A stretch of 64,000 bases of DNA from Planctomycetota bacterium (GTDB taxonomy: Bacteria; Planctomycetota; UBA1135; UBA2386): positions 4,224,001 to 4,288,000 of the forward strand of contig OZ245006.1 of NCBI GenBank assembly GCA_965223545.1, written 5' to 3'. The translations under genes and the position numbers were made by a program. Positions 435 through 19,758 of this stretch are shown here, piece by piece; position 1 is the first letter of the stretch; the number at the start of each line of letters is the position of its first letter. Below the pieces are notes generated by a model, which worked only from the letters and a program-made list of their open reading frames with translations, searched no databases and was not told the origin of the DNA.

Positions 435-1937
435 TCAGGACTCTTCCACAAGACCAGGGAAGTGTTCTTGCATGAGATCACCGATCGGGTGAGGTTGACG
501 TGGGGATTCCACGGCCAGGCCTGTGGCGTCCATTGGGCGGCCACTCAAGTCCCTCGTCGTCGGAGTCCCCACTCGTCCCTGTCGCCGTTGGTCGCGCTCA
601 TGCCGCTGTGGCGCGACGATGCTGCGCGTGAACTTGGCTGCGATGAGCGCGCGCGCGGCAACCTTCGTGAGCTCGTTGCCGTCGGCGTCTCGCAGGACGT
701 AGCGGACTTGCGTCGACGCCGGCTTGTCATCGGCGCGCTGGCTGTCGCGACGCTTCAGGAGGGCGTAGACGCGGCGCGCCATCTTGCCAGCCAATGCGAT
801 GAGGATGAGGTTGTGGTGATCACCTGCGGCGTAGCGGCGAGCGTAGTACGCCGCGAAATCCGGATCCCACTGGCGAGCGACGTCAGCTGCTAGGTAGAGG
901 TACTTCTTGAGTACTCGTTGGCCGGTTTTGGTGATTGGCATCGAGGGGTCGCTCATGCCCGTCTGCTTCCGGCGTGGACACAGTCCGCAGTAGCTCACGA
1001 ACTTCTTGCCGTTCGAGAACCGCGCGATGTCGCCTACCAAGGCTTCGATGGCCGCAGCGATCGTGGGACCGACGCCGCGCAGTTGCTCGAGTGTTCGGTC
1101 AGGATCGACGCCCAGGTAGAGCTTCTTGATCTTTGCGTCGAGCTTGCGAACGTCCGTGTTCTTGCGCTCGATCTCATCCAGCTCGTACACCACATCCTCT
1201 TGGATGGCCTCGTAGTCGAACGGCATCTGCCCCGCAGCTCGCAGCTCAGCGTAGTACTCGGCGGCCTGTCGGCAGGACTCGAGCACGCGGTCGACCAAGC
1301 ACGGGTCATGCGTTCCCTTGGATCGCTTCGTCAAGAAGCGCTCCAAGCGACTCTTCCCAAGGCCGACCGCTTTCACCGGATCGACGTAGCGCCGCAGAAA
1401 CCCCATCTTAGCGGCACTGAACTTCTCTGCCCCCAAGGCCTTCATGAGGCTGGGATTCGCCAGTACCAGTATCGCGTGCACACGACGCTTGTGGTCGCTG
1501 AGCTCGCGCGCCAACCGCTCACGCCGCTTCACGAGTCGACGGATCGTCGTCTCGTCGGCAGTTGGAACACGCAGCTGGTGGACGCCCTTTGGATCCATCT
1601 GCGGCAGACGCGCAGCGGCCTCGGCGTCTACTACGTCGGTTTTGGTGTGCTTGCTATAGAACTTCCGCAGGTCGCTCAGCTTCTGTGGTTTGCTCACGTA
1701 GATCTGGAACCCTGCGGCGTTCACGTGCGCCGCGATGGGCAGCCACGCCAACCCCGTTGGTTCCATCACGAAGCTCACCGGACCCTCGGCACCTTCCTGT
1801 GCACGGCGCAGCAGAAGGTCAATACCCTCACGGCTGTTCTCGACTGAAAACGGTCTGCCCCGAGACTTCGCACCATCCAGAACGACGGCTCGGTGCTTGC
1901 TCCTCAAGCCGAGATCCAATCCAACGAATCGATTCAT
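435..1937 (-). CDS. IS110-family DEDD transposase/recombinase (500 aa)
   Basis: N-terminal RuvC-like motifs FVGLDLG, MEPTG and KTDVVDA. C-terminal Transposase_20 region LRGVGPTIAAAI...FVSYCGLCP...KTGQRVLKKYLYLAA...ALAGKMARRVYALL. GGAGG RBS upstream. Confidence 0.97.
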   Translation of the reverse strand: MNRFVGLDLGLRSKHRAVVLDGAKSRGRPFSVENSREGIDLLLRRAQEGAEGPVSFVMEPTGLAWLPIAAHVNAAGFQIYVSKPQKLSDLRKFYSKHTKTDVVDAEAAARLPQMDPKGVHQLRVPTADETTIRRLVKRRERLARELSDHKRRVHAILVLANPSLMKALGAEKFSAAKMGFLRRYVDPVKAVGLGKSRLERFLTKRSKGTHDPCLVDRVLESCRQAAEYYAELRAAGQMPFDYEAIQEDVVYELDEIERKNTDVRKLDAKIKKLYLGVDPDRTLEQLRGVGPTIAAAIEALVGDIARFSNGKKFVSYCGLCPRRKQTGMSDPSMPITKTGQRVLKKYLYLAADVARQWDPDFAAYYARRYAAGDHHNLILIALAGKMARRVYALLKRRDSQRADDKPASTQVRYVLRDADGNELTKVAARALIAAKFTRSIVAPQRHERDQRRQGRVGTPTTRDLSGRPMDATGLAVESPRQPHPIGDLMQEHFPGLVEES

Positions 1938-2311: not shown

Positions 2312-2526
2312 GTTGCGGCCCCGGCCGCGCTGAGCCTCGGGGGCCGAGAATGTTCGAGCGGCAACAACCTTTCGGAAGGCCCGTCGTCGCCGGGACTTCG
2401 ATACCGCAACTCCCGGAGGCTCGAAGACAACACTGGCCTCTGGGCTCAGCGCGGCGGCGGATGGGTTCGGCCTTCCAAGCTGCTCCGGCGAGAGCGGTTG
2501 GTTGCGGCCGTGGCCGCGCTGAGCTC
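2312..2526 (+). repeat. Family-A hairpin repeat copy 2 (core 2324-2455), linker and truncated start of the next unit
   Basis: 13-bp terminal IR gccgcgctgagcc/ggctcagcgcggc. Interior close to 3779-3912. Confidence 0.9.
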
Positions 2527-2859
2527 GGTGCCCCCGGCCGCCGCTGGGGCGCGGGCCGCCGCCGGGCGCGCCGCGCTTTGGTCTTCTGACCCCGGGATTG
2601 GACAGCAGCGGGCCCCCTCGCTACTCTCCGACCTTTCGTCTGCCACGAACCCGGAGTGAAACCTGGAGCGCGGCGCCCCTGGTACGCAGGGACCGACCGC
2701 GCTCAGTGCCATCGATCGGGGTTGTGTCGACTCCGGTGAATCGGTCGCCGTCGGCCATGGGCCACGGGGCGAGATCCACCTCCTTTGTTTCACGGCCGGG
2801 CAAGGGCGCTCACTCCTGCGCCGGCCTTCCCGAATGGCACCGCCTGAAATCTCCGAGTC

Positions 2860-3378
2860 ATGAGCAAGCGCATTTTCGTCGGCAACCTGAATTACGACAC
2901 CACCGAGGACAACTTGGCCGCCGCCTTCGAGGGGCAGGGCTACAAGTTGGGCAGCTGTCGGATCGTCTTGGACCGTGATACCGGCCGCTCGCGCGGCTTC
3001 GCCTTCGTCGAGGTCGCCGAGGGCGTCGATGCCGACGCCGCCATGCAGGCGTTGGACGGCCACGAAGTCGACGGTCGTCCGCTCCGCGTCAACGAGGCCA
3101 CCGAACGTCCGCGCCGCGAGCGCCCCGCCTTCGGCGGTGGTGGTGGCGGCGGCGGCGGTTACGGCGGCGGCGGGGGCGGCTACGGCGGCGGCGGGGGTGG
3201 CTACGGCGGCGGCCGGCGCGGTGGTGACCGCGGTCGGCGCGGCGGCGGCCATGGCGACCGCGGTCGTCGTGGCGGCGGCGGTGGCTTCGGCGGCGGCGGT
3301 GGCGGTGGCGGCGGAGGCGGCGGTGGTCGTGGCCGCCGCGGCCGCGACGAGCACTACGACAGCCGCGAGGAGTGGTGA
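2860..3378 (+). CDS. RRM RNA-binding protein with Gly/Arg-rich tail
   Basis: RNP2 IFVGNL, RNP1 RGFAFVEV, LRVNEA, then a GGGGYGGG/RGG tail. Confidence 0.95.
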   Translation: MSKRIFVGNLNYDTTEDNLAAAFEGQGYKLGSCRIVLDRDTGRSRGFAFVEVAEGVDADAAMQALDGHEVDGRPLRVNEATERPRRERPAFGGGGGGGGGYGGGGGGYGGGGGGYGGGRRGGDRGRRGGGHGDRGRRGGGGGFGGGGGGGGGGGGGRGRRGRDEHYDSREEW

Positions 3379-3483
3379 CCTCGCCGCGGCCGTTGTGCCG
3401 CTGGCATCGTGTGATTGGAGCCCCGATCGCTCCCGCTGTCGCCACTCCCCGCCGCCACCGAAACAACACGGAGTCACCCTGAC

Positions 3484-3708
3484 ATGGCAGATTCGTTTCA
3501 GAAGAGAAACCGGGAACGGCGGAAGCAGCAGCGCCGCCGCGACAAGGCGATCCGCAAAGAGGAGCGCAAGTTTCTGGAACCGCCGGAGGAGGGGATGTCG
3601 GCCGCTGAGCTCGAGGAGATGTTCGAGCAGGCGATCCGGCAGCGCGAGGCGGGCGACGAAGAGGAAGAGGGTGGCGAGGGCGAGGACACCGTCGTCGATC
3701 GCACCTGA
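3484..3708 (+). CDS. Small highly charged hypothetical protein
   Basis: MADSFQKRNRERRKQQRRRDKAIRKEERK..., acidic C-terminus, GGAG RBS, host-like codon usage. Confidence 0.7.
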   Translation: MADSFQKRNRERRKQQRRRDKAIRKEERKFLEPPEEGMSAAELEEMFEQAIRQREAGDEEEEGGEGEDTVVDRT

Positions 3709-3758
3709 CGCTAGTCTCCGGCGCCACGAATCGTCGAGCCGCTCCGGCAAGAGCGGCT

Positions 3759-4195
3759 CCGAGTTTGGTTGCGGCCCCGGCCGCGCTGAGCCTCAGGGTC
3801 CGCAAGTCTTCGCGCGGCAACAACCTTTCGGAAGGCTCGATGCCGCTGGAACTTCGACAACGCAGCTCCCGGAGGCTCGAAGACGACACTGGCCTCTGGG
3901 CTCAGCGCGGCCGCCGGCGACCGCGGGACCCGCGACCGACGCTCGGGTCGCGGAATGCTCCGTGTTTGGTTGCGCCCCCGGCCGCGGTGAGCCTCAGGGT
4001 CCGCAAGTCTTCGCGCGGCGACAACCTTTCGGAAGGCTCGATGCCGCTGGAACTTCGATACCGCAGCTCCCGGAGGCTCGAAGACAACACTGGCCTCTGG
4101 GCTCAGCGCGGCCGCCGGCGACCGCGGGATCCGCGACCGACGCTCGGGTCGCGGAATGCTCCGTGTTTGGTTGCGCCCCCGGCCGCGGTGAGCGT
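3759..4195 (+). repeat. Family-A tandem array with a 201-bp period (cores 3779-3912 and 3980-4113, partial third unit)
   Basis: tttggttgcg recurs at 3764, 3965 and 4166. Units are nearly identical. Linker hairpin ccgcgacc...ggtcgcgg. Confidence 0.95.
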
Positions 4196-4348
4196 GCGGT
4201 CGGGGTTCTCGAATTGAGAGCGCGTCGCTCGGCGTCGCGTCTCCGCAGCGGACCTTCCGACGACGCCGCGAGTTGACCGCCCGAGCACGGCGCGGTCCCG
4301 CGCCCGGCAGTGGTTTTTCGGCTCCGCCGTCGGTGCAGGAACCTCCGT

Positions 4349-5647
4349 ATGTGGCCGATCAGCGGGGCACGTGGAGGCGCTGTCTTGCTGTTGATCCTGA
4401 GCCCACATCGCGTCGGCGTGCGTGGCGACCGCTACGCACTGGACGCCGACCTTCATCGAGAGCTTTGTTGCTATGCCGAGCGGCTGGGGGGCGCGGTGGC
4501 GTGCCTCGCCGTCCGGGAGACCGACGATGACGGCGCCACCGACGGTGGCACCATCGTCCTCGCGCCGGCAGAGCTGCCCTACGAGCTCCGTCTCGTCGAC
4601 AGCGAGGCCGGCGGCGGGCGGAGCGAGGCGCTGCGCGCGGAGCTCGCGGGCCAACTCGAGGGTGTGACGCTGGTGGCCGGCGCGGCGACGGACGCGATGG
4701 CCGCGACCGTGTTCGAGATCGCCGGAGAACGCCAAGTGCCGTGCGTGCCGCTGGTGGACGACACGGGTGATGTGTTCGGCGGGGCTGCCGGGGTCGGAAT
4801 CGTCGGCCGCGTGCTGGGTGCGATGCGCAGTCATGCGCAGCAGCGACAAGTGCGCAAACAGCTCCGCGGTGCCGCGGCGGTCCAATGCGTCGGCTTCACC
4901 GCCCATGAGCAGTGCGTCGCTCTCAACCCCGACGCCGTGGTCGTGCTGCACTCTCGCCTGCACGCCGAAGAGGTCGTCTCCGTCGAGCGAGTGCACCGGC
5001 GCGTGGCCTCGCTGCACAACGGCCGGCGCCCGAGGCTGTTCTGGGCGGGCCATCTCGAGGAGGAGCGCGGCGTGTTGGAGATCGTCGGCCTCGCTCTCGA
5101 GCTGCGCCGGTTGGGGCAGGATTTCCGATTGCAGATCTTCGGCCGCGGCTCGCTGCGCGGCGAGATCGAGCGGCGCATCGAGCAGGAAGGCGCCCAGCGT
5201 TTCGTCGAGGTTCACGGGCCGCTGTCCTGGGCGGACCAGCGGCAGGTCATGAACCAGTCGGACCTGTCGCTCAGCTTCGGCTACGCGCCCGGCGTCGTGC
5301 GCCCGGTGCTGGAGGCGATGGGCGCGGGGTTGCCCGTCCTGGGCCCGTCCTGCGGGTCTCTGGGCCTGCTCGCCGACATGTCGTCGGCGTGTGTCGTGGT
5401 CCCGGAGGACAACGTCGCCGCCGCGGCGCGAGCGGCCCGCCGGGTGCTGCGCGACCGCAGCCGACTGCTGTCGCTGTCCCTGGCGGCCCGGCGATTCGCG
5501 GGGGCGCACTGCGCGGAGCGACAGTGGGAGCGCCGCGTGGAGCACTGGCGCCCGTTGTTGGAACGCGTGCCCGCGCCGGCCGGCGCCGGCGAGCCGTCGG
5601 CCGCCACGCCGTCGGCCGCCGCGGAGCCGGTCTCGATCGAGAGCTGA
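4349..5647 (+). CDS. GT-B (GT4-like) glycosyltransferase, divergent
   Basis: LFWAGHLEEERG, LQIFGRGSLR, VLEAMGAGLPVL. ATG at 4349 chosen from the upstream AGGA. Confidence 0.75.
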   Translation: MWPISGARGGAVLLLILSPHRVGVRGDRYALDADLHRELCCYAERLGGAVACLAVRETDDDGATDGGTIVLAPAELPYELRLVDSEAGGGRSEALRAELAGQLEGVTLVAGAATDAMAATVFEIAGERQVPCVPLVDDTGDVFGGAAGVGIVGRVLGAMRSHAQQRQVRKQLRGAAAVQCVGFTAHEQCVALNPDAVVVLHSRLHAEEVVSVERVHRRVASLHNGRRPRLFWAGHLEEERGVLEIVGLALELRRLGQDFRLQIFGRGSLRGEIERRIEQEGAQRFVEVHGPLSWADQRQVMNQSDLSLSFGYAPGVVRPVLEAMGAGLPVLGPSCGSLGLLADMSSACVVVPEDNVAAAARAARRVLRDRSRLLSLSLAARRFAGAHCAERQWERRVEHWRPLLERVPAPAGAGEPSAATPSAAAEPVSIES

Positions 5648-6349: not shown

Positions 6350-7300
6350 ATGGTGCGCTGGGCGGCAAAGAAACACCGGTCGGGTGGTGCAGGGCGATCG
6401 TCGCTCGGGCCCCAAGCCCGCGGGATCTTCGACCGGCTGTTCGGTGCTGCGGCGACGCCGGAGAGCCGGTCGGCCACCGCCGAGGCCCTCAGCGTGGCGA
6501 TTGCCTCGGGCAAGGGCGGCACCGGCAAGTCGTTCTTGGCCACCAATCTGGGCGTGCTGCTGCACCAGGCCGGGCGCCGCGTCTGCATCGTGGATTGTGA
6601 CTTCGGGTTGGCCTGCGACCACCTGCTGCTCGGTGTGTCGCCCCGGTTGACCCTGCAGGACTACGTCTCCGGACGCGCCAACATGGCGGACCTGACGATC
6701 GATACCCCGGCTGGACCGCGGCTGGTGCCCGGTGCGCAGGGGGTGCGCCGCATGGCCAGTCTGACCGACGCGGAGCTGCTGCGCTTGGCGCATGGGCTCG
6801 GCGAGGCGGCCGCCGACCACGACGTGATGATCTTGGACGTCGGGGCGGGGATTTCGCCGCAGACCATGTTGACGATGCTGGCTGCCGACCACCTTGTGCT
6901 GGTCACCGAGCCGGAGATCGCGGCGCTGACCGACGCGTACGCGGTCATCAAGTGCATTGCCCAGCTGCGACAGCAGGTGGAATTCTCGGTGGTCGTCAAC
7001 CGAGTCGCCGCGCCGGGACAGGGCCGCGCGACGTTTGCCAAGCTCGACGACGTCTCACAAAGATACACAGGGGTCACCCTGCGTTATCTGGGAGAGGTCG
7101 GATTCGATCCCGCGGTGACCCACCGCCGGTTGGGGCAACGCCCGCTGTCCGTGTCCGATCCCGCCGGTGCCACCGCGGCGGCGCTGCGGTGTGTGACCGC
7201 TCGGCTAGAGGGTGTCGTGGGGGGTTTTGGTCCAAGATCCGTCGCACCAGATGAAGGCATCGAAAGTCGGTTCCGCTCGCACCGTTTGTTCGTGACCTGA
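6350..7300 (+). CDS. MinD/FlhG-family ATPase
   Basis: ASGKGGTGKS deviant Walker A, VDCDFGLA, ILDVGAGI, TEPEIAALTDAYAVIK. Confidence 0.9.
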   Translation: MVRWAAKKHRSGGAGRSSLGPQARGIFDRLFGAAATPESRSATAEALSVAIASGKGGTGKSFLATNLGVLLHQAGRRVCIVDCDFGLACDHLLLGVSPRLTLQDYVSGRANMADLTIDTPAGPRLVPGAQGVRRMASLTDAELLRLAHGLGEAAADHDVMILDVGAGISPQTMLTMLAADHLVLVTEPEIAALTDAYAVIKCIAQLRQQVEFSVVVNRVAAPGQGRATFAKLDDVSQRYTGVTLRYLGEVGFDPAVTHRRLGQRPLSVSDPAGATAAALRCVTARLEGVVGGFGPRSVAPDEGIESRFRSHRLFVT

Positions 7301-7441
7301 AGCGGAGGAGTCCCCTCTGGTTTTTGCGGGCATCGCGTGCGAAGAACACGTGCTCAGCGCGTGCTATTCTCCCTCGGGGAGGTTGGACCAGGTGGGCCCG
7401 TTGCCAGCCGGTTCTGACTCCCGGACAACTGGGCTAACGCC

Positions 7442-8545
7442 ATGGAAACGAAGCGTGTAATCGTCGTTGGCTGCGGCGGCTTCATCGGGAGCCACCTGGT
7501 CGAGCGGCTTTTGAGTACCGATGGGTACGAGGTGATCGGCTTCGATACCTCGAGCCACAAGATCGCGGCGCACCTCGACAACCCGCGCTTCACGTTCCGC
7601 AACACGTACATCGAGGCCGCCAACGTGGAGGCCGAGATCGGCCCCTACCTGGACGACTGCCATGCGCTGTTCTCCCTGGCGGCGGTCTGCAACCCCGCCG
7701 AGTACGTCGCCAACCCGGTCTACACGATCGAGTCGAACTTCATCGACTCCTACAAGCTGGTCGAGCTGTGCGCGAAGCGCGGCATCTGGCTCATCCACAC
7801 CTCGACCTGCGAGGTGTACGGCCGAACGCTGGCCAGCTACTTGGACGACAACGACTACTCCGATCCGCGACTCTACGAGCAGGTCGAAGACGAGACGCCG
7901 CACGTGATGGGGCCGACGGTCAACCAGCGTTGGTGCTACGCCGCGGCCAAGGCGCTGCTCGAGCGCTACATCTACGCCAACCACACCGAGCGCGGTCTGC
8001 CGTTCACGATCGTCCGGCCGTACAACTGGTTCGGGCCGCGCATGGACTACATCCCCGGCCGCGATGGCGAGGGGACGCCCCGCGTGCTCGCCTGCTTCAT
8101 GAAGGCGCTGCTCGACAACGAGCCGATCCAGCTCGTCGACGGTGGAACCGCGACGCGGACCATCACCTACATCGACGACTGCATCGATGCCTTGATGCGC
8201 ATGCTCGAGCGGCCGGCGAAGGCGCAGAACACTTTCTTCAACATCGGTAATCGCGCCAGCGAAGTCACCGTGGCGGAGCTCGCATCGCTGATGATCGAGC
8301 TCTACGCCGAGATCACCGGTGACGAGGCGCGGCGGAGCCACCCCGTCCTGGAGGTCACCGGGGAGCAGTTCTACGGCAAGGGCTACGAGGACTGCGACCG
8401 CCGAGTCCCGAGTGTCGAGCGCGCCGAGCAGCGGCTCGACTGGTATCCCAAGGCGGACCTGCGCACGACCTTGCGCAGGACGATGGAGTACTTCCACGCC
8501 GCCTACGGCGTCCGTTCGGACGCAGCGGTCGACGGCGGCCGGTGA
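7442..8545 (+). CDS. UDP-glucuronate decarboxylase-family SDR, UDP-apiose/UDP-xylose synthase (UAXS/UAS)-like
   Basis: GCGGFIG, AAVCNPAEY, SNFID, STCEVYG, QRWCYAAAK, VRPYNWFGPRMDYIPG, PRVLACF, FYGKGYED. Confidence 0.85.
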   Translation: METKRVIVVGCGGFIGSHLVERLLSTDGYEVIGFDTSSHKIAAHLDNPRFTFRNTYIEAANVEAEIGPYLDDCHALFSLAAVCNPAEYVANPVYTIESNFIDSYKLVELCAKRGIWLIHTSTCEVYGRTLASYLDDNDYSDPRLYEQVEDETPHVMGPTVNQRWCYAAAKALLERYIYANHTERGLPFTIVRPYNWFGPRMDYIPGRDGEGTPRVLACFMKALLDNEPIQLVDGGTATRTITYIDDCIDALMRMLERPAKAQNTFFNIGNRASEVTVAELASLMIELYAEITGDEARRSHPVLEVTGEQFYGKGYEDCDRRVPSVERAEQRLDWYPKADLRTTLRRTMEYFHAAYGVRSDAAVDGGR

Positions 8546-8549
8546 GTCG

Positions 8550-9308
8550 TCACCCCGGCGGTCCGGGCGTTGCTTCGGCCGCCGTGGGCTTGAAGCGCCC
8601 CAGCTTGTACTTGGCCATCACCTTGAGACAGCGCAGCCCGTAGACCACCGGGTTGAGGTGGGACTCCTCGTCGGCGTAGCGCGTCGGGATGGCCAGCTCG
8701 TCGACGGTGAAGCCGCGTGCTCTTGCCGAAGCGATGACTTCGAGGTCGAAATCGAAGTAGTAGCTCAGGCGTTCGAAAGGGATCTGCTCGACGGCTCGGC
8801 GGCTGTAGAGCATGAACCCCGAGTGGTAATCCGTCATGCGCAGCCCGAAGGTCTTGTTCTCCATCCAAGTCAGGACCTTGCCGGCGACGTACTTGTAGTA
8901 CGGCATCCCCCCGCGCAGGGCGGTGCCGTCCTTGTGTCGTGACCCTTGCAGCACGTCGATGCCGTGCGTGGCCATGTGGTCGATGAACTCGACGACCTTT
9001 TCCGGGGGGTACTGTCCGTCGGCGTGTAGGCACGCGACGTAACCGGCCTCGGCCTCGGCAGCGCACTGCCGCAGGCCCTCGCGCACGGCGGCGCCGTAGC
9101 CGCGGTTCTCTGCGAACCGGACGACGCGGACTTGCTCGTGTGCGGCGGCGATGCGCTCGGCGACCTCTTGGGTGGCGTCGGCGCTGCCGTCGTTGATGAT
9201 GAACGCCGCCGTCAAGCGTCGCCAGAGCTCGTCGGGAAACCGATCGAACACGCCGTCCAAGGTGCCGCTCGCGTTGTACGCGGGGACGAAGACCGCGCAG
9301 CGGTTCAT
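8550..9308 (-). CDS. GT2 glycosyltransferase, polyprenol-phosphate (DPM synthase-like) type
   Basis: VPAYNA, INDGSAD, NRGYGAA, LHADGQY, QGSR, TDYHSGF, IPTRY. Confidence 0.9.
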   Translation of the reverse strand: MNRCAVFVPAYNASGTLDGVFDRFPDELWRRLTAAFIINDGSADATQEVAERIAAAHEQVRVVRFAENRGYGAAVREGLRQCAAEAEAGYVACLHADGQYPPEKVVEFIDHMATHGIDVLQGSRHKDGTALRGGMPYYKYVAGKVLTWMENKTFGLRMTDYHSGFMLYSRRAVEQIPFERLSYYFDFDLEVIASARARGFTVDELAIPTRYADEESHLNPVVYGLRCLKVMAKYKLGRFKPTAAEATPGPPG

Positions 9309-10681
9309 GCTTCACCACCCGTGGGATCCGGCGTCGAGCCACCGCCGCGTCGGCCGGCGAGCAAAGCCAAGCCGGCGGCGATCGCGGTGAACAGCGGTAC
9401 GTCGAGCTCGCTGCGGTAGCGCGGCAGCGCGGTGGTATTGGCCGCGGCTCCAATGATGGCGAGGATGCACAGAGCGAGGCCGATCAACACCACGTGCGCA
9501 CGCCTGCGACGGCGCACGGCCAGCCAGAACCCGCCGACCAGCGCGATCGTCGCCACCGCGGGAATCACCAGGCGGAACAGGACCTTGCCGGCTGCCACCC
9601 CCCAGTGGCCTTCTGCCGTCACTTGGTCGAGGCTGCGGTCGACCCTTCTCTGGTAGTCCTCGTCGAGCCAGGTGAAGTCGTAGCCGCCGAGGACACGGCT
9701 CACCAAGAGGACGCCCTCCATGGCGTAGCGCCCAGGGCGCGCACGCATGCTCTCCCTGGCGACCTCGAGAAACTCCGCATCGATCGCTGCCCGCGGCATG
9801 CCCTGCTGGAGCAGCCGAATGTAGATCTGCCACTGAATCTGCAGCGCCAGCGACGGCCCCAAGTGCGGATGGTCGGGAAAGTCGTCGCGGAGATCTCGGG
9901 CTTGGTCGCGGATGCGGACGCCGTGCTCGCCCTCCGGCGCCAGGTGCCAGGTGCGCAAGAACAGCTGCATTCCCGACAGGCAGGCGGGGGCGAAGAAGCC
10001 GTGCCGCACCTGGTTGCGCACCATCCAAGGCAGCACGATCACGGCAGTCATCAGTACGACCGCGCCGGCGCGACGCCAGCGGTGCAGCCGCTGGCCCTGC
10101 ATGGCGAACAGCGCGGCCGGGAATGCCAGCGCCGCCCAGGCGCCGCGGGTCAGTCCCAACACGCCGAAGCAAAAGCCGGCGAGCGCGCACCACCGCGCGC
10201 TGGCGCGGTCGATGCCGCGGATCAGGGTGGCGATCGCCGCCACTAGCATGATTTGTTGCAGTGGTGAGGAGTAGAGCTCGCGCAAGGTGGCCAGCTGATC
10301 ACCGTCGATCGCCCACAACCAGGTGACGATGGCGGCGGCGACATGGTTGCCGGGCAACAGCCGACGCAGAATCCACAGGCCGATGAGCATCGCCGCGATC
10401 GACGCACAGGCCCAGAAGCGCAGCAACGGCACCAGATCGCGGCCGAGCAGCTCCATGCTGAGCATGAGCGCGAACGGAAACCCCGGTTCGCGCGACTCGT
10501 TGGTGTACACGCCGGTGTCCCGCAGCTTGACCGCCGCGTCGTAGTACTCAGCGGCGTCCCACCGAATGGGGGGGATCTCGAACCACTGGGGACAGAGCCG
10601 GAGCACCGCACCCACCGCAATTCCCGCCACCACCAGCCACAGGACCCACTTCGGCTGCGGACGCTCAGCGCGGGGTTGCAT
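9305..10681 (-). CDS. Polytopic membrane glycosyltransferase (GT-C, ArnT/PMT-like)
   Basis: WDAAEY loop after TM1, REPGFP, many TM helices, PWMVRN, PRY near the C-terminus. Overlaps the GT2 start. Confidence 0.75.
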   Translation of the reverse strand: MQPRAERPQPKWVLWLVVAGIAVGAVLRLCPQWFEIPPIRWDAAEYYDAAVKLRDTGVYTNESREPGFPFALMLSMELLGRDLVPLLRFWACASIAAMLIGLWILRRLLPGNHVAAAIVTWLWAIDGDQLATLRELYSSPLQQIMLVAAIATLIRGIDRASARWCALAGFCFGVLGLTRGAWAALAFPAALFAMQGQRLHRWRRAGAVVLMTAVIVLPWMVRNQVRHGFFAPACLSGMQLFLRTWHLAPEGEHGVRIRDQARDLRDDFPDHPHLGPSLALQIQWQIYIRLLQQGMPRAAIDAEFLEVARESMRARPGRYAMEGVLLVSRVLGGYDFTWLDEDYQRRVDRSLDQVTAEGHWGVAAGKVLFRLVIPAVATIALVGGFWLAVRRRRRAHVVLIGLALCILAIIGAAANTTALPRYRSELDVPLFTAIAAGLALLAGRRGGGSTPDPTGGEA

Positions 10682-12062
10682 GCCAGACCCTGCGCGACAG
10701 GAGCGTGCCGATGAGCGCGACCGGGATCATTGCGATGGGCCACGCCATCCAATTCGCCGGATCCGCCGCCGCCGGCCCGTTGGGCAGCGTGGCCCAGTAG
10801 GTCAGAGACATGACGCCCGTGCCGGCATAGACGAATCCGTCGATGATGCCGACCGCCGTGCCCGCGTTCTTGCGCCCGCCGAAATCCATGCTCGCCGTGC
10901 CCGACAGCATCCCGTGCACGCCGATCACGCACAGGGACATGACGACGACCAGCGGGCCCAACGCCGGAGTTCGATAGAGGAACGCCAGCAGCACCGCGCC
11001 GATCAGCATGGCCGAATACAACAGCGCGGCGACCGGCCCGCGCCGGGACTGGAACACTCGATCGGAGATCACGCCGGCGACCACGCCGCCGAGGATTCCC
11101 GCTGCGCACAGGAGCATGCCCCAGTTGTCGTAGACGAAGCCGCCATCACCCTCGGTCTGTTTGATGAACGTGCGGTACCACTGCATGATCGCCTGGCGGA
11201 GGAACCCGCTGCAGAACTCGATCAGCGCGATGGTCAGGATCACCGGGTTGCGCAGCATCATCGCGAACACCGCCGCCGCTCCGAGCCGGCGGTCGTCTTC
11301 CGGCGAGGCCGCGTCGCCGGTGTCGAAGTCGGTGTGGCCTGCCTGTCCCGGTGTGTTGCGCACCACGATGACGATGACCACCGAGAACACCGCCAGCAGA
11401 ACCGCCGGCACGAAGAACACGGCCTGCAGTGGCCAGACCTCGAGCAGCATCCTGCCGACGTCGAAGGCGAAGTAGATGCCGAGCGAGATCAGGATTCCGA
11501 AGATCGCGCCGAACACGCCCCGCTCGCGGACGTGGAACCACGGTGCGTTGCACTTGACGATGGCGACCGCGCCAAAGCTCTGGAAGTACATGTTGGTGCC
11601 GTACAGCAGCACCAACCAAAGCTGGAGTTGTTCGGCGGACGGCCGGTCGGCGATGTCGCGGCCCAGGATGTCCATCGTCAGCCAGCCGGTCAGCGCGTTG
11701 CAGGCCAGCGAACCGAGTGCTCCGGCCAGGATGGCGGCCTTGCCACCAAAGCGATCGGTGAGCGGCCCGTTGAGCACGAACGCGCAGCCGTAGACGAACG
11801 TGCCGACGCCGAAGATCGTCGCGAAGTGCGCGTTGTCCATGAGCCCCAGATCCTGGAACTCGTCCTTGGCGACGGTCAGGTTGTAGCGCCCCATGTAGAG
11901 GAACGCGTAGGTCAGCCCGAGCGGCAACCAGTTGAGCACTCGCCGTCGCCGATAGCTCGCCGACAGATCGAGCCCTTCGACCCGTGGCAGCCGCGCGATC
12001 ACGACCGCGACGACCGCCAACAGGATCAGGATGGGGAGGAAGTTATCGAGCCAGGTGGGCAT
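10665..12062 (-). CDS. MFS transporter, GlpT/UhpC (organophosphate) type
   Basis: YAFLYMGRYNL, GPLTDRFGG, PWFHVRERG, GVISDRVFQSRRGP, AGTAVGIIDGFVY. Start chosen at MPTWL. Confidence 0.88.
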   Translation of the reverse strand: MPTWLDNFLPILILLAVVAVVIARLPRVEGLDLSASYRRRRVLNWLPLGLTYAFLYMGRYNLTVAKDEFQDLGLMDNAHFATIFGVGTFVYGCAFVLNGPLTDRFGGKAAILAGALGSLACNALTGWLTMDILGRDIADRPSAEQLQLWLVLLYGTNMYFQSFGAVAIVKCNAPWFHVRERGVFGAIFGILISLGIYFAFDVGRMLLEVWPLQAVFFVPAVLLAVFSVVIVIVVRNTPGQAGHTDFDTGDAASPEDDRRLGAAAVFAMMLRNPVILTIALIEFCSGFLRQAIMQWYRTFIKQTEGDGGFVYDNWGMLLCAAGILGGVVAGVISDRVFQSRRGPVAALLYSAMLIGAVLLAFLYRTPALGPLVVVMSLCVIGVHGMLSGTASMDFGGRKNAGTAVGIIDGFVYAGTGVMSLTYWATLPNGPAAADPANWMAWPIAMIPVALIGTLLSRRVWHATPR

Positions 12063-12285
12063 CAGGCGGGACCGCGTCAAAGAGTAGTGGCAACGCCTGG
12101 CATCCCAAGGCCGTGCCATCGAGGTTTCCGCCCCGCCGGCCGCCGCCGCCTCTCTTTCCGGCTGGCCGGCGCAGCCCGGTCCGGCGTGGTCGATCGGCAG
12201 CAACCGAGTCTTGAGCCACCGCTGGCGCCACCTACCATGACCCCTTTTCCCCATTCCGCGGCCGGTCCCCCCCGGGCGCCGTTCC

Positions 12286-13944
12286 ATGACGATTGCGCAA
12301 GAGCTGGCCGACGCCCTCGGCCTCGAGAACGTTCGCTACAAGGAGAACCTCGACAAGGAGGCCCTGTTCCACGAGGCGATCGCCAACGATCGCGGGCGGG
12401 TGGTAAAGGACGGCCCCGACGATGCGCAAAAGGCCTTCCCGACCAAGCTGGGAATCAACGGGCCGCTGGTGTTCTACACCGACCCGAGCTGCACCGGGCG
12501 CCCGGTGCAGGACACTTTCGCGGTGGCGTGGCCGGAGCTGGAAGACGAGGTCTGGTGGAAGAAGGACTTTCAGAAGTTCGACCCCGCCAAGTTCGAGGCG
12601 CTGTTGCGCCGCGTCGTCGAGCACCTCAACGGCAAGGGAGCGAGTCTCTACGTCAAGGATGTGTACTGCGGTACGGACCCCGAGTATGCCGTTCCCTATC
12701 GGTTCGTCGGCGAGTACGCGACGCACGCGCTGTTCGTCCACAACATGTTCCCCAAGGGGATCCAAGGGGTCGGCGACGAGTCCGGCAAGCGTTGGACGTT
12801 GCTCAACGTGCCGACGTTCCACTGCGACCCGGACCGGGATGGCACGCGGTCGGCCCGCGTGGTCGTCGCCGACATGAAGAACCGCATCGCGCTGGTGTGC
12901 GGGCGCGCTGACTACTGCGGCGTGAACAAGAAGATGATGTTCACGGTGATGAACTACATGCTGCCGAAGATGGGGCACTTGTCGATGCACTGCTCCGCCA
13001 ACGTCGGACAGGGCGGCGATGGCGCGATTCTGTTCGGCCTGTCGGGAACCGGCAAGACCACGCTCTCCGCGGATCCCCACCGCGAGCTCATCGGCGACGA
13101 CGAGCACGCGTGGACCGCGAGCGGGGTCAGCAACCTCGAAGACGGTTGCTACGCGAAGCTGATCGACCTGGACAAGGAGGCCGAGCCGATCATCGCCGCG
13201 GCGTTGTCGATGCCCGGCACCCTGGTCGAGAACGTGCCGCCGCTGCCCGGCCGCAAGATGGAGGACACCGATCCACAAGAGCTGGACCTGACCGACTCTT
13301 CGATCACCGAGAACACCCGGTTCTCTTATCCGCTGACCTGCAATCCGAACGTCGCGGCGGGCGCCAAGGGGCCGCACCCGGAGACGATCGTGCTGCTCAC
13401 CGCCGACGCGTTCGGGGTCCTGCCGCCGGTCGCGGTGCTGACTCCGCGCGACGTGATGTACCACTTCGTTTCCGGCTTCACCGCCAAGCTGGCCGGCACC
13501 GAGGTGGGGATCACCGAGCCGGTGGCGGCGTTCAGCGCCTGCTTCGGTGCACCATTCATGGCGCAGAAGCCGCCGGTGTACGCGAAGCTGCTCGCCGACA
13601 AGATGAAGAAGCACGAGACGCGCTGCATCTTGCTCAACACCGGCTGGGGCGGCGGCCCGTACGGGACCGGCAAGCGCATCTCGATCCAGCACACGCGCGC
13701 GCTGCTCGATGCCGCGCTCCGCGGCGATCTCGACGAGGGCAAGGTCGAGTACGAGCAGCACTCCGTGTTCAACCTGTCGATGCCGAAGAGCTGCCCGGGA
13801 GTGCCGGCCGAGATCCTCAATCCGCGCAACACGTGGGCCGACAAGGAGGCCTACGACGCAGCGGCGTCCAAGCTGCGCGACATGTTCCGCGAGAACTTCG
13901 ACAGCAAGGGTTTTGCAGCGCTGGGTCTCGAGCCGGTGATGTAG
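12286..13944 (+). CDS. pckA: Phosphoenolpyruvate carboxykinase (ATP)
   Basis: SMHCSAN, FGLSGTGKTTLS, LIGDDEH, GCYAK, TENTR, LTADAFGVLPP, FSACFGAPF, NTGW. Confidence 0.97.
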   Translation: MTIAQELADALGLENVRYKENLDKEALFHEAIANDRGRVVKDGPDDAQKAFPTKLGINGPLVFYTDPSCTGRPVQDTFAVAWPELEDEVWWKKDFQKFDPAKFEALLRRVVEHLNGKGASLYVKDVYCGTDPEYAVPYRFVGEYATHALFVHNMFPKGIQGVGDESGKRWTLLNVPTFHCDPDRDGTRSARVVVADMKNRIALVCGRADYCGVNKKMMFTVMNYMLPKMGHLSMHCSANVGQGGDGAILFGLSGTGKTTLSADPHRELIGDDEHAWTASGVSNLEDGCYAKLIDLDKEAEPIIAAALSMPGTLVENVPPLPGRKMEDTDPQELDLTDSSITENTRFSYPLTCNPNVAAGAKGPHPETIVLLTADAFGVLPPVAVLTPRDVMYHFVSGFTAKLAGTEVGITEPVAAFSACFGAPFMAQKPPVYAKLLADKMKKHETRCILLNTGWGGGPYGTGKRISIQHTRALLDAALRGDLDEGKVEYEQHSVFNLSMPKSCPGVPAEILNPRNTWADKEAYDAAASKLRDMFRENFDSKGFAALGLEPVM

Positions 13945-13950
13945 GCGCGG

Positions 13951-15027
13951 TCACGCGCACTCGCGGGCGATCTCGAGGAAGCGCGCCGCCGACTGGCTCC
14001 AGCTGTAGCGCGCGGCGCGGACGCGTCCCTTCGCCGCCAGCTCGTCGCGATAGTCGTCGTCGCCGAGCACGCGGCGCAAGGCGGCGGCGATGTCGTCCTC
14101 GTCGTTGGGGTCGACGTAGTGGGCCGCATCGCCGCAGACCTCGGGCAAGCTGGTCACCTTGGAGGTGATGACGGGGCACCCCTGGCTCATCGCCTCGATC
14201 GGGGGGATGCCGAAGCCCTCGTAGTGTGACGGGTAGCAGAACACCCGCGCACCGCGATAGAGCCGGGCGAGTTCGCGGTCGGAGACATAGCCGGCGAGCT
14301 CGACGCGCGGGTCCTCCAACAGTCGGGCCAGCTCGGGCTGGCGGCCGTAGACCGAGCGGTCGGCGGAGCCGACGATGACGAGCCGCACGGTGGGGTCCTC
14401 GATCTGGCGGAAGGCCCGCACCAGGCCGGCGAAGTTCTTGCGCTTCTGCAGAGTGGCGACGCCCAATACGTAGCTGCCGTCTGCCGCTGCATCGCCGCCG
14501 TTGGCCAACCCGGCTTCGTCGTCGTTCGTCAGCAGCGTGGGCGACACCGCGTTGTAGACCACTTCGATCTTGTCGGCGGGGATCCCCAGGTGTCGCACGA
14601 TCTCCGACTTGGAGAACTCGCTCACCGTGACCACGCGCTCGGCCCGTCGACAGAGGCGCGGCACGAGAAAGCCGTAGTAGTGGTAGAAGCCGCGGGATAC
14701 CCAGTCTCGGTGCAGGAAGCACACATCGTGCACCGTCACGATCGTCGGCTGATAGCGGAGTGGCGCGGTGAAGGTGAGGCCAATCAAGAGTGGGTTGCCG
14801 CGGGCGCGCAACGCGCGCGGCAAGTCGAGCTGCTCCCACGCGATCCCGCGCCGGCGACCGACGACCTCGCAGCCGAGCTCGGCGGAGAGTCCGGCGTCGT
14901 GGGTGTCCGCTGAGCCGATCAACCGCACGGCGGGGTCGAGCCGGCGCATCTCGCGCGAGATCTCGACCGCGTAGCGCTGGGCGCCCGTGATGCGGCGGCT
15001 CAGGAAGCGCGCGTTGATGCAGATCAT
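13951..15027 (-). CDS. GT4 glycosyltransferase
   Basis: [37 protein letters not shown]. Confidence 0.95.
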
Positions 15028-15846: not shown

Positions 15847-17100
15847 GTGTCCACCGCCGACGCAGCCCCGGCCTCGGTCTCGCCGCGCAACGCGGACAAA
15901 CCGTGCATCGTGATCACCTACCCGTATCCGGTCGGGCAGCGGGCGGCGGGTGGTCCGCGGACGCTGAGGGAAGTCGCGTTTCAGCTGACGGCGCAGGGCG
16001 CGGACGTGATCGTGATCTCGGTGTCCACCAACGCGCTCACCCGGCGGTTTCCGCGCAAACCGATGGAGCACAAGTACCTGGGTGAGGAGTGGGACGCGGT
16101 GTTCGCGGCGCACGGCGTCGAGCTGATTCGCGTTCCGCAGGATCGCTGGCTCTATCTCTGGGATGGGCGTCCGGTGCTGCGCGAGATGCGCCGCTTGTTG
16201 GCCCGGCGCCGTGTCGACTTGGTGCTCGGACACTATCACGAAGCGGGCTACCTGCCGGATTTCCTCGCGGCAAGGGGGATTCCGTTCGGCTACTTCGCCA
16301 CCTGGCAGACCTACGCCCCGCTCGCCGCCGAGCCGCGCAGCTGGGCGGGGAGAATGCAGAAGAGCATTCGCGATCGCGTCATCGTCGAAGCGCACCGGAA
16401 GGCGGACATCCACTTTGCCATTTCCGAGTTCACCAAGCGCGAGCTGATCGAGGTGTTGGGGGTCGATCCCGATCGAATCGTGGTCGCACCGCTCGGTGTC
16501 GAGCGCAGCTTCTTGGAGATCCCACGGCAGAGGCCGCAGAAGATCCGCAACCTGCTGTTCTTCGGGCGCATCACCTGGACCAAGGGGTTTCAGGACGCGT
16601 TCGAAGCGCTCGGCCAGCTGCGCCGACAAGGTGTCGAGGACTGGCACCTGCGACTGATCGGCGAGTGCCGCCCGGAGATGGTCGAGGGGCAGGCGAAGAA
16701 GTTCGGCGTGTCGGACAAGATCACCATCGATGGCCCGTTCGACGACGCCGGGTTGCGGCGCGAGCTGCGCGAAGCACACCTCGCCGTGTTGCCTTCGCAC
16801 GCCGAGTCGTTCGGACACGCGATCGTCGAAGCGCAGGCCTCGGGCCTGGCGGTCGTCGCCTATGCCACGGGTTCGGTGACCGAGGTGGTCGCCGATGGCG
16901 AGACCGGTTGGCTGGCGCCGTTCCGCCAACGGGAGGCGCTGGCGACCTGTCTGCAGCAGGCGCTCTCCGATCCGGACCGCTGCTACCGCAGAGGACTCGC
17001 CGCTCGCGAGCGGGTCGCGTCCCTGTATCAATGGGAGCACACCGCCGCCGCGATGCTCGAAGGCCTACGCGATCTCAAACCTGAAAGTACGGAGCCATGA
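15847..17100 (+). CDS. GT4 glycosyltransferase
   Basis: AISEFTK, FFGRITWTKG, LPSHAESFGHAIVEAQASG. Confidence 0.95.
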   Translation: MSTADAAPASVSPRNADKPCIVITYPYPVGQRAAGGPRTLREVAFQLTAQGADVIVISVSTNALTRRFPRKPMEHKYLGEEWDAVFAAHGVELIRVPQDRWLYLWDGRPVLREMRRLLARRRVDLVLGHYHEAGYLPDFLAARGIPFGYFATWQTYAPLAAEPRSWAGRMQKSIRDRVIVEAHRKADIHFAISEFTKRELIEVLGVDPDRIVVAPLGVERSFLEIPRQRPQKIRNLLFFGRITWTKGFQDAFEALGQLRRQGVEDWHLRLIGECRPEMVEGQAKKFGVSDKITIDGPFDDAGLRRELREAHLAVLPSHAESFGHAIVEAQASGLAVVAYATGSVTEVVADGETGWLAPFRQREALATCLQQALSDPDRCYRRGLAARERVASLYQWEHTAAAMLEGLRDLKPESTEP

Positions 17101-17229
17101 GGGTACGGTGAAAGTACGGAGCCAGGCTCCCGTTCATCACTTGGCCAGGCCAGCCGCCCAGGAGGAGGTTGTTGAGCCAAGTGATGAACGGGAGCCTGGC
17201 TCCGTACCCTCATGGCTCCGTACCTTCAG
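17081..17229. repeat. Family-B nested inverted repeat (REP/MITE-like) between convergent genes
   Basis: Perfect 32-bp IR 17114-17145/17176-17207. Outer 28-bp IR 17081-17108/17202-17229 with one mismatch. Confidence 0.92.
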
Positions 17230-19583: not shown

Positions 19584-19758
19584 GCAGAGCACGCGGCCCC
19601 GCACTGGCTCGATATCGCATCGCGACGAGACTTCTCCCGAGAAGCCGACTGCCCAACGGCTGCGTGCTTGATCCTGCAAGGTTCGCCTCTCCGAATTCCC
19701 TCTGGCCACGACATCGACCGATGGGCCGGGCCAACTTCACTGGCAACGCGTCACCGCC

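Follow-up and report, generated by a model that had tools for sequence, protein, structure and literature searches.

What does a bacterium do with UDP-apiose? The papers of 2017 and 2018 on bacterial UDP-apiose/UDP-xylose synthases (UAS) left the use of this sugar nucleotide open and saw no conserved operon (PMC5607165, PMC6193724). The question is raised by a locus in the stretch of DNA analysed here (the window: 64,000 nucleotides of a Planctomycetota bacterium, contig OZ245006.1, G000:C1:4224001-4288000; the genome, G000, measures 8.1 Mb and is 91% complete), where a putative UAS, an extended-type short-chain dehydrogenase/reductase (SDR), lies convergently, tail to tail, with a family 2 glycosyltransferase (GT2), their stop codons 4 bp apart, and where a candidate membrane glycosyltransferase of the GT-C class, on the same strand as the GT2, overlaps the start of the latter by 4 bp. 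A prediction made from the letters of this DNA alone (hereafter the original prediction) had located these three open reading frames, their 4-bp gap and their coupling correctly, and had proposed that UDP-apiose or UDP-xylose is loaded onto a polyprenyl phosphate by the GT2 and passed to a periplasmic acceptor by the GT-C. The present analysis argues that the synthase and the GT2 are inherited together, which makes the fate of bacterial UDP-apiose directly testable, and leaves the complete route from UDP-apiose through polyprenyl-phosphate-apiose to a GT-C evenly poised between acceptance and rejection. The likelihoods worded below for its steps are our own estimates; gene content and conservation are what was observed.

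There is strong sequence evidence that the SDR is a bacterial UDP-apiose/xylose synthase, placed with the plant enzymes (UDP-apiose/UDP-xylose synthase, UAXS) and bacterial UAS rather than with ArnA or the UDP-xylose synthases (UXS), and the original prediction, which had called it plant-type, was borne out in this. Its best match in the PDB is Arabidopsis UAXS (6h0n; E 9e-97, 328 bits), against 212 bits (E 1e-61) for ArnA and 108 bits for human UXS. All ten catalytic and signature residues of UAXS listed in Table 3 of PMC12820599, that is, the Thr-Tyr-Lys triad together with Cys100, Tyr105, Cys140, Glu141, Arg182, Asn214 and Arg341, are present in the SDR as C83, Y88, T122, C123, E124, R163, Y166, K170, N195 and R321. 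The five motifs quoted in the original prediction all lie in the protein (AAVCNPAEY from residue 80, SNFID from 98, STCEVYG from 121, GPRMDYIPG from 198 and PRVLACF from 213), the plant motifs given there for comparison agree with 6h0n, and ArnA and human UXS do carry Ser at the position of Cys140. In a tree of 120 sequences the SDR stands among Cys100-bearing enzymes with the UAXS of Mesostigma and Hevea and a homologue from Alloyangia (Yangia) pacifica, with ArnA/U4kpxs separate; FastTree support is 0.77 for this clade and 0.99 for the node next below it, and several deep nodes are weak. The Alloyangia pacifica homologue, 55% identical to the SDR and placed within the sister group of the window's clade, combines Cys100 with Ser140, so that Cys140 is unsafe as a marker of the UAS clade.

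An ArnA- or U4kpxs-like enzyme releasing only UDP-4-keto-pentose or UDP-xylose would be suggested by the best NCBIfam match of the SDR, PRK11908 (U4kpxs; 284.7 bits, under the cut-off of 294), the more so as no UAS-named model is among the matches. This identity is nevertheless very improbable, considering that the SDR scores 116 bits more with plant UAXS than with ArnA, that both cysteines are present and that its clade is separate in the tree. Nor is the protein an ArnA: it has a single domain of 367 residues, carries Cys where ArnA has Ala393 and Ser433, and reaches 240.9 with PRK08125 against a cut-off of 777, and a Pfam scan found no ArnB, ArnD or formyltransferase part in the locus. Bacterial UAS enzymes are already published, three of them assayed, with a ratio of UDP-apiose to UDP-xylose of about 1.7:1 for one (PMC5607165). 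By these comparisons it is very probable that the SDR converts UDP-glucuronate to UDP-apiose, and the three matches to UDP-sugar dehydrogenase families that pass the cut-off in its own genome could supply the substrate. No viral UAS appeared among the best 80 loci, where the best match was 32%, and no RNA holder is listed. Two unusual relatives of the SDR were also noted: P0001, of 746 aa, in which a UAS-like domain is fused behind a Polysacc_synt_2 dehydratase domain, and a haloarchaeal UAS-like SDR (42%) in a glycosylation cluster of a Halomarina plasmid (NZ_CP100449.1; L176:7001-8020), which has Ala at Cys100 and keeps Cys140.

The original prediction expected all three genes to recur together. 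This held for the UAS and the GT2, which are found side by side far beyond the window's genome, but not for the window's GT-C, which has no orthologue at the other UAS loci. At eleven of the 13 close UAS loci in our genome collection (62-77%) the UAS stands tail to tail with an orthologous GT2, which in one case is cut and frameshifted; the two remaining loci carry a second copy of UAS, the pair being present elsewhere in the genomes concerned. Among 225 genomes of the class to which genome G042 belongs, 15 were found to contain UAS and 16 the GT2 clade (63-68%), namely the same 15 and G224, where the UAS is split over three frames beside the GT2 (L173:11743-12440) by pseudogene formation or assembly error; the two genes lie within 2 kb of each other in 14 of the 16 genomes and on separate contigs in two, and the next-best GT2 matches do not exceed 45%. 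In a RecA tree of 15 genomes, drawn to see whether those with UAS form one lineage, genomes with and without UAS interleave, with supports mostly below 70. A metagenome scan, of which the best 80 of 584 stretches were taken, showed SDRs of 37-57% identity to be paired as well, in most cases within a same-strand operon. Of 100 non-redundant SDR loci (at least 290 aligned residues, two outgroups from the window's genome included), 53 have a member of this GT2 subfamily no more than 7 kb away, 17 are on contigs that end too soon and 30 have none; for the loci with a Cys100-bearing SDR the corresponding figures are 49 of 77, 13 and 15. The GT2 follows directly downstream in 45 of the 53 paired loci. 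The trees of UAS and GT2 mirror each other with r 0.916, a value inflated by shared host ancestry (46 pairs with a near-full GT2; best of 999 permutations 0.234), and the paired GT2s separate from 15 unpaired HxD-type GT2s under midpoint rooting. From this we infer that UAS and GT2 form a conserved donor module in which the GT2 is the dedicated partner. The lack of a UAS-GT2 fusion among 150 SDR matches and 6 longer GT2 matches is weak evidence.

Within the window's own class UAS occurs in 2 of 251 genomes, and within its own family the tight GT2 clade occurs in 2 of 91, which are the two UAS-positive genomes of the class sample. The pair is patchy there and nested among sequences of other groups, a pattern that would be consistent with transfer. 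A 16S probe for Planctomycetes has two exact matches in the window's genome, in keeping with a planctomycete as the probable host. One contig, L001 (G454:C80), is titled Luminiphilus sp. yet placed in the window's own family, a conflict of label or binning.

The GT2 matches Pfam Glycos_transf_2 (PF00535); its top NCBIfam matches are PpgS, PgfS and Dol-P hexose transferase, and its best PDB match, weak as are those to GtrB and ArnC, is the dolichyl-phosphate mannose synthase (DPMS) of Pyrococcus (E 9e-12). With the residue roles of Pyrococcus DPMS taken from PMC5526996, the metal ligands Asp91 and Gln93 are kept as D97 and Q99 and the acceptor-phosphate ligand Arg117 as R124. Across the family alignment these three are conserved in 48 of 48 sequences, and Asp89 is replaced by His in all 48 (HAD for DxD); at two positions that contact O2 and O3 of the donor in DPMS, the window's GT2 has His and Tyr. 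Such residues fit a lipid-phosphate transferase with an altered sugar pocket, short of proof. Several observations weigh against this assignment: every NCBIfam score stays below its cut-off, Arg131 of DPMS is Lys in 46 of 48 family members and Ser135 is Gly or Asn (Lys and Gly in the window's GT2), and a helical-moment scan left the two amphipathic interface helices outside the top ten windows. GtrB likewise is without clear counterparts of Arg131 and Ser135 (PMC5526996).

No transmembrane helix was found in the GT2, and this, like the loss of Ser135, would also suit an ordinary cytoplasmic transferase that places apiose from UDP-apiose directly onto a glycolipid, onto a repeat unit linked to lipid-PP or onto a small molecule, with no polyprenyl-phosphate-apiose being made. 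The frequent location of the pair within MBOAT/AlgX acetylation or Wzc-type clusters, the two proteins in which the GT2 is fused to an AlgX-like domain and the fact that the sole bacterial apiosyltransferase published so far, a GT90 enzyme, works by direct transfer (PMC6193724) agree with such an activity. However, the named proteins that the GT2 resembles best are all polyprenyl- or dolichyl-phosphate transferases, human DPM1 is likewise without transmembrane helices, Pyrococcus DPMS is active without its membrane domain (PMC5526996), and in the window, in L106 and in L140 the genes for the GT2 and a GT-C are coupled or adjacent. We consider direct transfer unlikely, if the most serious of the alternatives, and the synthesis of polyprenyl-phosphate-apiose by the GT2 slightly favoured overall. 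The longer GT2 forms comprise fusions to an atypical SDR (P0153) or to the AlgX-like domain; among the UAS-linked fusions P0153, P0154 and P0155, those with AlgX could be read-through artefacts, and the atypical-SDR cluster has 5 members, 2 of them fusions of full length. In L123:142-11825, and also in L118, L129, L125, L127 and L130, a protein with transmembrane and TPR segments (TM-TPR), an acetylesterase-like gene, an MBOAT gene, an AlgX-like gene, the atypical SDR, UAS, GT2 and a long AlgX-like gene form a conserved cluster that possibly directs the synthesis of an acetylated, apiose-bearing glycan.

Polyprenyl-phosphate-apiose being the favoured product, the identity of the sugar still has to be weighed, since UAS enzymes yield UDP-apiose as well as UDP-xylose (PMC5607165). 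The lipid route might be real and its cargo xylose, or a 4-keto-pentose reduced afterwards by a second SDR, with UDP-apiose as a by-product. An atypical second SDR does accompany the pair at many distant loci, fused to the GT2 in P0153, and the GT2 of the UAS operon of Xanthomonas pisi uses UDP-xylose, though that enzyme belongs to a different GT2 subfamily (PMC6193724). Against apiose as the cargo also counts that the GT2 pairs with 4 SDRs without Cys100, so it need not be specific for this sugar, and it pairs with 11 enzymes having Ser or Ala at Cys140. Yet a UXS-like enzyme distinct from the UAS is encoded in the window's genome (E 2e-108 to human UXS) and in all four other UAS genomes tested, so that in 5 of 5 the supply of xylose need not rely on UAS; both cysteines are kept in 13 of the 13 closest relatives of the SDR; and nothing in the window's genome closely resembles the second SDR (best 28-30%). 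A xylose cargo is, in our estimation, distinctly improbable.

As for the last gene, the GT-C label of the original prediction stood by way of its relatives: the window's protein remains below the PMT_2 cut-off (E 3e-4, 21.4 bits against 26.1), but a paralogue 51% identical to it passes that cut-off, and the ESM Atlas gives a GT-C feature match of 0.99 to PMT_2/ArnT clusters. With at least six hydrophobic helices (strict window) and an Asp shortly after helix 1 that the paralogue shares, the protein appears to be a multi-pass, PMT_2/ArnT-like membrane protein. Its family consists of this in-genome paralogue and two homologues elsewhere, one of 37% in genome G001 and a weak match in G404, and no UAS was found in either of these genomes. 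Other GT-C families were sought at the 37 pair loci of at least 8 kb with queries seeded from Pfam and NCBIfam matches, and a GT-C-like gene was present at 12 of them, the window included; those at the 11 others are unrelated to the window's, and altogether the GT-Cs of pair loci come from at least five mutually unmatched families. Thus the three genes are not conserved together as orthologues, but GT-Cs of other families stand at a third of the long pair loci. A random point of the window's genome has a PMT_2-type GT-C within 8 kb 3% of the time and within 2 kb 0.8% of the time, a background (own-genome random points) against which the general clustering of glycosylation genes inflates the enrichment. 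We take the GT-C of such loci to be lineage-specific and exchangeable.

The involvement of a GT-C is opposed by several of these data. Besides the inflated enrichment and the lack of orthologues at other UAS loci, 17 of the 37 long loci have no GT-C with the queries used, as direct transfer from UDP-apiose would have it, and 8 more have only a TM-TPR protein, for which assignment to GT-C could not be made; the closest UAS locus (77%) shows the GT2 and an acyltransferase-3 gene, the GT-C being absent from its 5.8 kb contig; and the homologue in G001 stands alone, neither UAS nor GT2 having been found in that genome (82% complete). The same solitary homologue would suit a situation in which UAS and GT2 do make polyprenyl-phosphate-apiose, the adjacent GT-C is a bystander using another donor, and another GT-C of the genome passes the apiose on. 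There are 17 PMT_2 matches in the genome (12-28 in each of five others), the paralogue adjoins a gene resembling polyprenyl-phosphoribose synthase, and an unrelated transporter gene upstream overlaps the GT-C in like manner. On the other side, the GT-C overlaps the GT2 on the same strand, the placing of a PMT_2 match so near is rare by chance, as given above, and a characterised pentofuranose GT-C takes more than one pentose (PMC11127046). The bystander role is likewise distinctly improbable in our judgement; transfer to an envelope acceptor by some GT-C has about an even chance, and transfer by the adjacent GT-C in particular is somewhat less likely than not.

A further line of evidence comes from the genes of pentofuranose pathways that start from phosphoribosyl pyrophosphate (PRPP). 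GT-C family A is a family with a WWDE-type motif, of which L012:10844-12733 is an example. In G042's class it was found in 18 genomes out of 225, with 2 to at least 5 matches each, and not in the other 207. A polyprenyl-phosphoribose-synthase-like UbiA gene is present at 60% or more in 17 of these 18 genomes (8 weaker matches occur elsewhere); this gene is found close to UAS in L011 and L086 and close to family-A genes in three genomes, and the paralogue of the window's GT-C has it directly upstream. Hence both GT-C families, the window's and family A, have members beside the phosphoribose-synthase-like gene and members beside UAS-GT2, which hints that the cargo would be a pentofuranose, apiose being favoured over xylopyranose. 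Against this, the same neighbourhood equally allows both families to serve only the PRPP route. Family A covers all 16 genomes with the pair and also two where the pair was not found, and it tracks the phosphoribose-synthase-like gene as well as it tracks UAS-GT2; because of this equal tracking, and its occurrence without UAS-GT2, family A may use a ribose- or arabinose-type donor. The window's GT-C was considered as a member of family A and rejected (hhalign probability 5%), and searches of PDB sequences with alignments of both families gave nothing meaningful. In the window's genome the 51% paralogue stands directly behind the sole close polyprenyl-phosphoribose-synthase-like UbiA gene (G000:C1:2586805-2589767; L032:8806-11768), which would point to a lipid route for ribo- or arabinofuranose running in parallel; a DprE1-like gene was seen elsewhere (L035:9526-10929).

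Taken together, we hypothesize a lipid-carrier route in which UAS converts UDP-glucuronate to UDP-apiose and some UDP-xylose, and the GT2, as a soluble protein acting at the membrane's inner face, would transfer apiofuranose from the short-lived UDP-apiose to polyprenyl phosphate. The glycolipid would then be flipped, and the adjacent GT-C would move apiose to a glycan, lipid or protein of the envelope outside the cytoplasm. The flipping step is at odds with the lack of a GtrA-type flippase in the window's genome and in three of the four other UAS genomes, and this too would agree with direct transfer; in the locus itself no flippase was found, and the genome-wide search covered GtrA, not MATE or LPG_synthase_TM. 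If the route operates, lipid-bound apiose would be a more durable donor than UDP-apiose, which decays within 4 h (PMC6193724), and two inversions starting from UDP-alpha-D-apiose would give an alpha-linked apiofuranoside. The linkage of apiose in plants is beta, and the one predicted here would be its opposite. More tentatively still, the pathway may be widespread in bacteria, with a dedicated HAD-motif GT2 making polyprenyl-phosphate-apiose and several unrelated GT-C families, among them one that has expanded to at least five copies per genome in a class of uncultured bacteria, using it interchangeably with PRPP-derived polyprenyl-phosphate-pentofuranoses, which would put alpha-linked apiose on the cell surface. 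Apiose would then be a sugar normally present in the envelopes of several phyla and no speciality of plants.

The features of the locus are collected in Table 1. The neighbours of the SDR gene are of MinD-like, GT2, GT-C and major facilitator superfamily (MFS) type, and the GC content of the SDR, GT2 and GT-C genes (65-69%) is similar to that of their neighbours. The MFS gene was considered as a part of the pathway and rejected, since it matched none of 30 UAS loci; its one close homologue among 80 relatives adjoins a sulfatase-like gene and has no glycosylation neighbours. Three GT4 genes and one GT2-TPR gene surround the locus (window 4310-5647, 13951-15027, 15847-17100 and 17226-19709), and they may build the acceptor glycan. 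No sigma-70-like site was found within window 7200-14200. Repeated intergenic elements, visible as repeated peptides in shadow reading frames, occupy window ~2450-4220, and a 500-aa open reading frame at 435-1937 (-) may encode an IS110-type transposase.

Table 1. Genes of the UAS-GT2-GT-C locus, with positions in the window.
Feature	Position	Strand	Basis
UDP-apiose/UDP-xylose synthase (bacterial UAS), extended SDR, 367 aa	7442..8545	+	best PDB match Arabidopsis UAXS, ten signature residues, tree position
Soluble DPM1-like GT2, HAD for DxD, 252 aa; candidate polyprenyl-phosphate apiosyltransferase, UAS partner	8550..9308	-	Pfam, NCBIfam and PDB matches, co-occurrence, mirror tree
PMT_2/ArnT-like GT-C membrane glycosyltransferase, 458 aa; candidate final transferase	9305..10681	-	PMT_2, Atlas features, hydrophobic helices, 51% paralogue
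GlpT/PgtP-like MFS transporter	10665-12287	-	17-bp overlap with GT-C start

Bacterial UAS are known, and the window contributes the link of a GT-C to UAS-GT2 and the parallel with the PRPP route; neither lipid-linked apiose nor a DPM-like GT2 linked to UAS turned up in the literature searched, from which subscription journals were largely missing. The SDR belongs to the same enzyme family as GrUAS, XpUAS, CeUAS and YpUAS (Smith and Bar-Peled, 2017, PMC5607165), but for those four genes that paper saw no conserved operon, whereas the UAS of the window has a recurring GT2 partner; the gene of the Alloyangia pacifica homologue, unlike it, has no GT2 beside it. In Xanthomonas pisi the operon UAS-ApiT(GT90)-XylT(GT2) likewise couples UAS to glycosyltransferases that use its products (PMC6193724). 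There the apiosyltransferase is a soluble GT90, the GT2 is of the pfam13704 type and uses UDP-xylose, and neither a lipid carrier nor a GT-C is described (PMC6193724); the window instead has a GT2 of the DPM1-like kind (PF00535) with a GT-C next to it.

The order GT2, lipid, GT-C is a textbook architecture. In the GtrB/GtrA/Gtr*, ArnC/ArnEF/ArnT and DPMS-type systems, a DPMS-like GT2 turns a nucleoside diphosphate-sugar into a polyprenyl-phosphate-sugar that a PMT_2/ArnT-like GT-C then uses, which is the layout proposed for the window, although in the window's GT2 HAD replaces DxD and a membrane anchor is absent. The known cargoes of these systems are, to our knowledge, hexoses, N-acetylhexosamines or 4-amino-4-deoxyarabinose, glucose and mannose being among those of the GtrB and DPMS types (PMC11127046, PMC5526996). 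The parallel with ArnA/ArnC/ArnT drawn by the original prediction is an analogy only, and the locus, having no ArnB, ArnD or formyltransferase part, is not an Arn locus.

MtxS, of the mycobacterial methylthioxylose capping system, is a DPM-like GT2. In that system (MtxS, MtxT) a GT-C transfers a pentofuranose from a decaprenyl-phosphate donor outside the cytoplasm, as is proposed for the window (PMC11127046), but the donor derives from methylthioadenosine, unlike the UDP-sugar of the window. The three-component systems described for Citrobacter O1/O2 (a polyprenyl-phosphoribose synthase, a MATE flippase and a GT136 GT-C; Kelly et al., 2024, PMC11127046) also bring a pentofuranose by way of polyprenyl monophosphate to a GT-C, with an optional SDR epimerase and a donor-promiscuous GT-C. 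The window does not show such a full system, no GtrA match having been found in its genome and no flippase in the locus, and the word apiose is absent from the main text of that paper. The Citrobacter donor is made from PRPP by a UbiA-fold enzyme, whereas that of the window would be made from a UDP-sugar by the GT2 (PMC11127046). If this holds, the window would represent a further lipid-linked pentofuranose route, fed by a UDP-sugar through a GT2, beside those from PRPP and methylthioadenosine.

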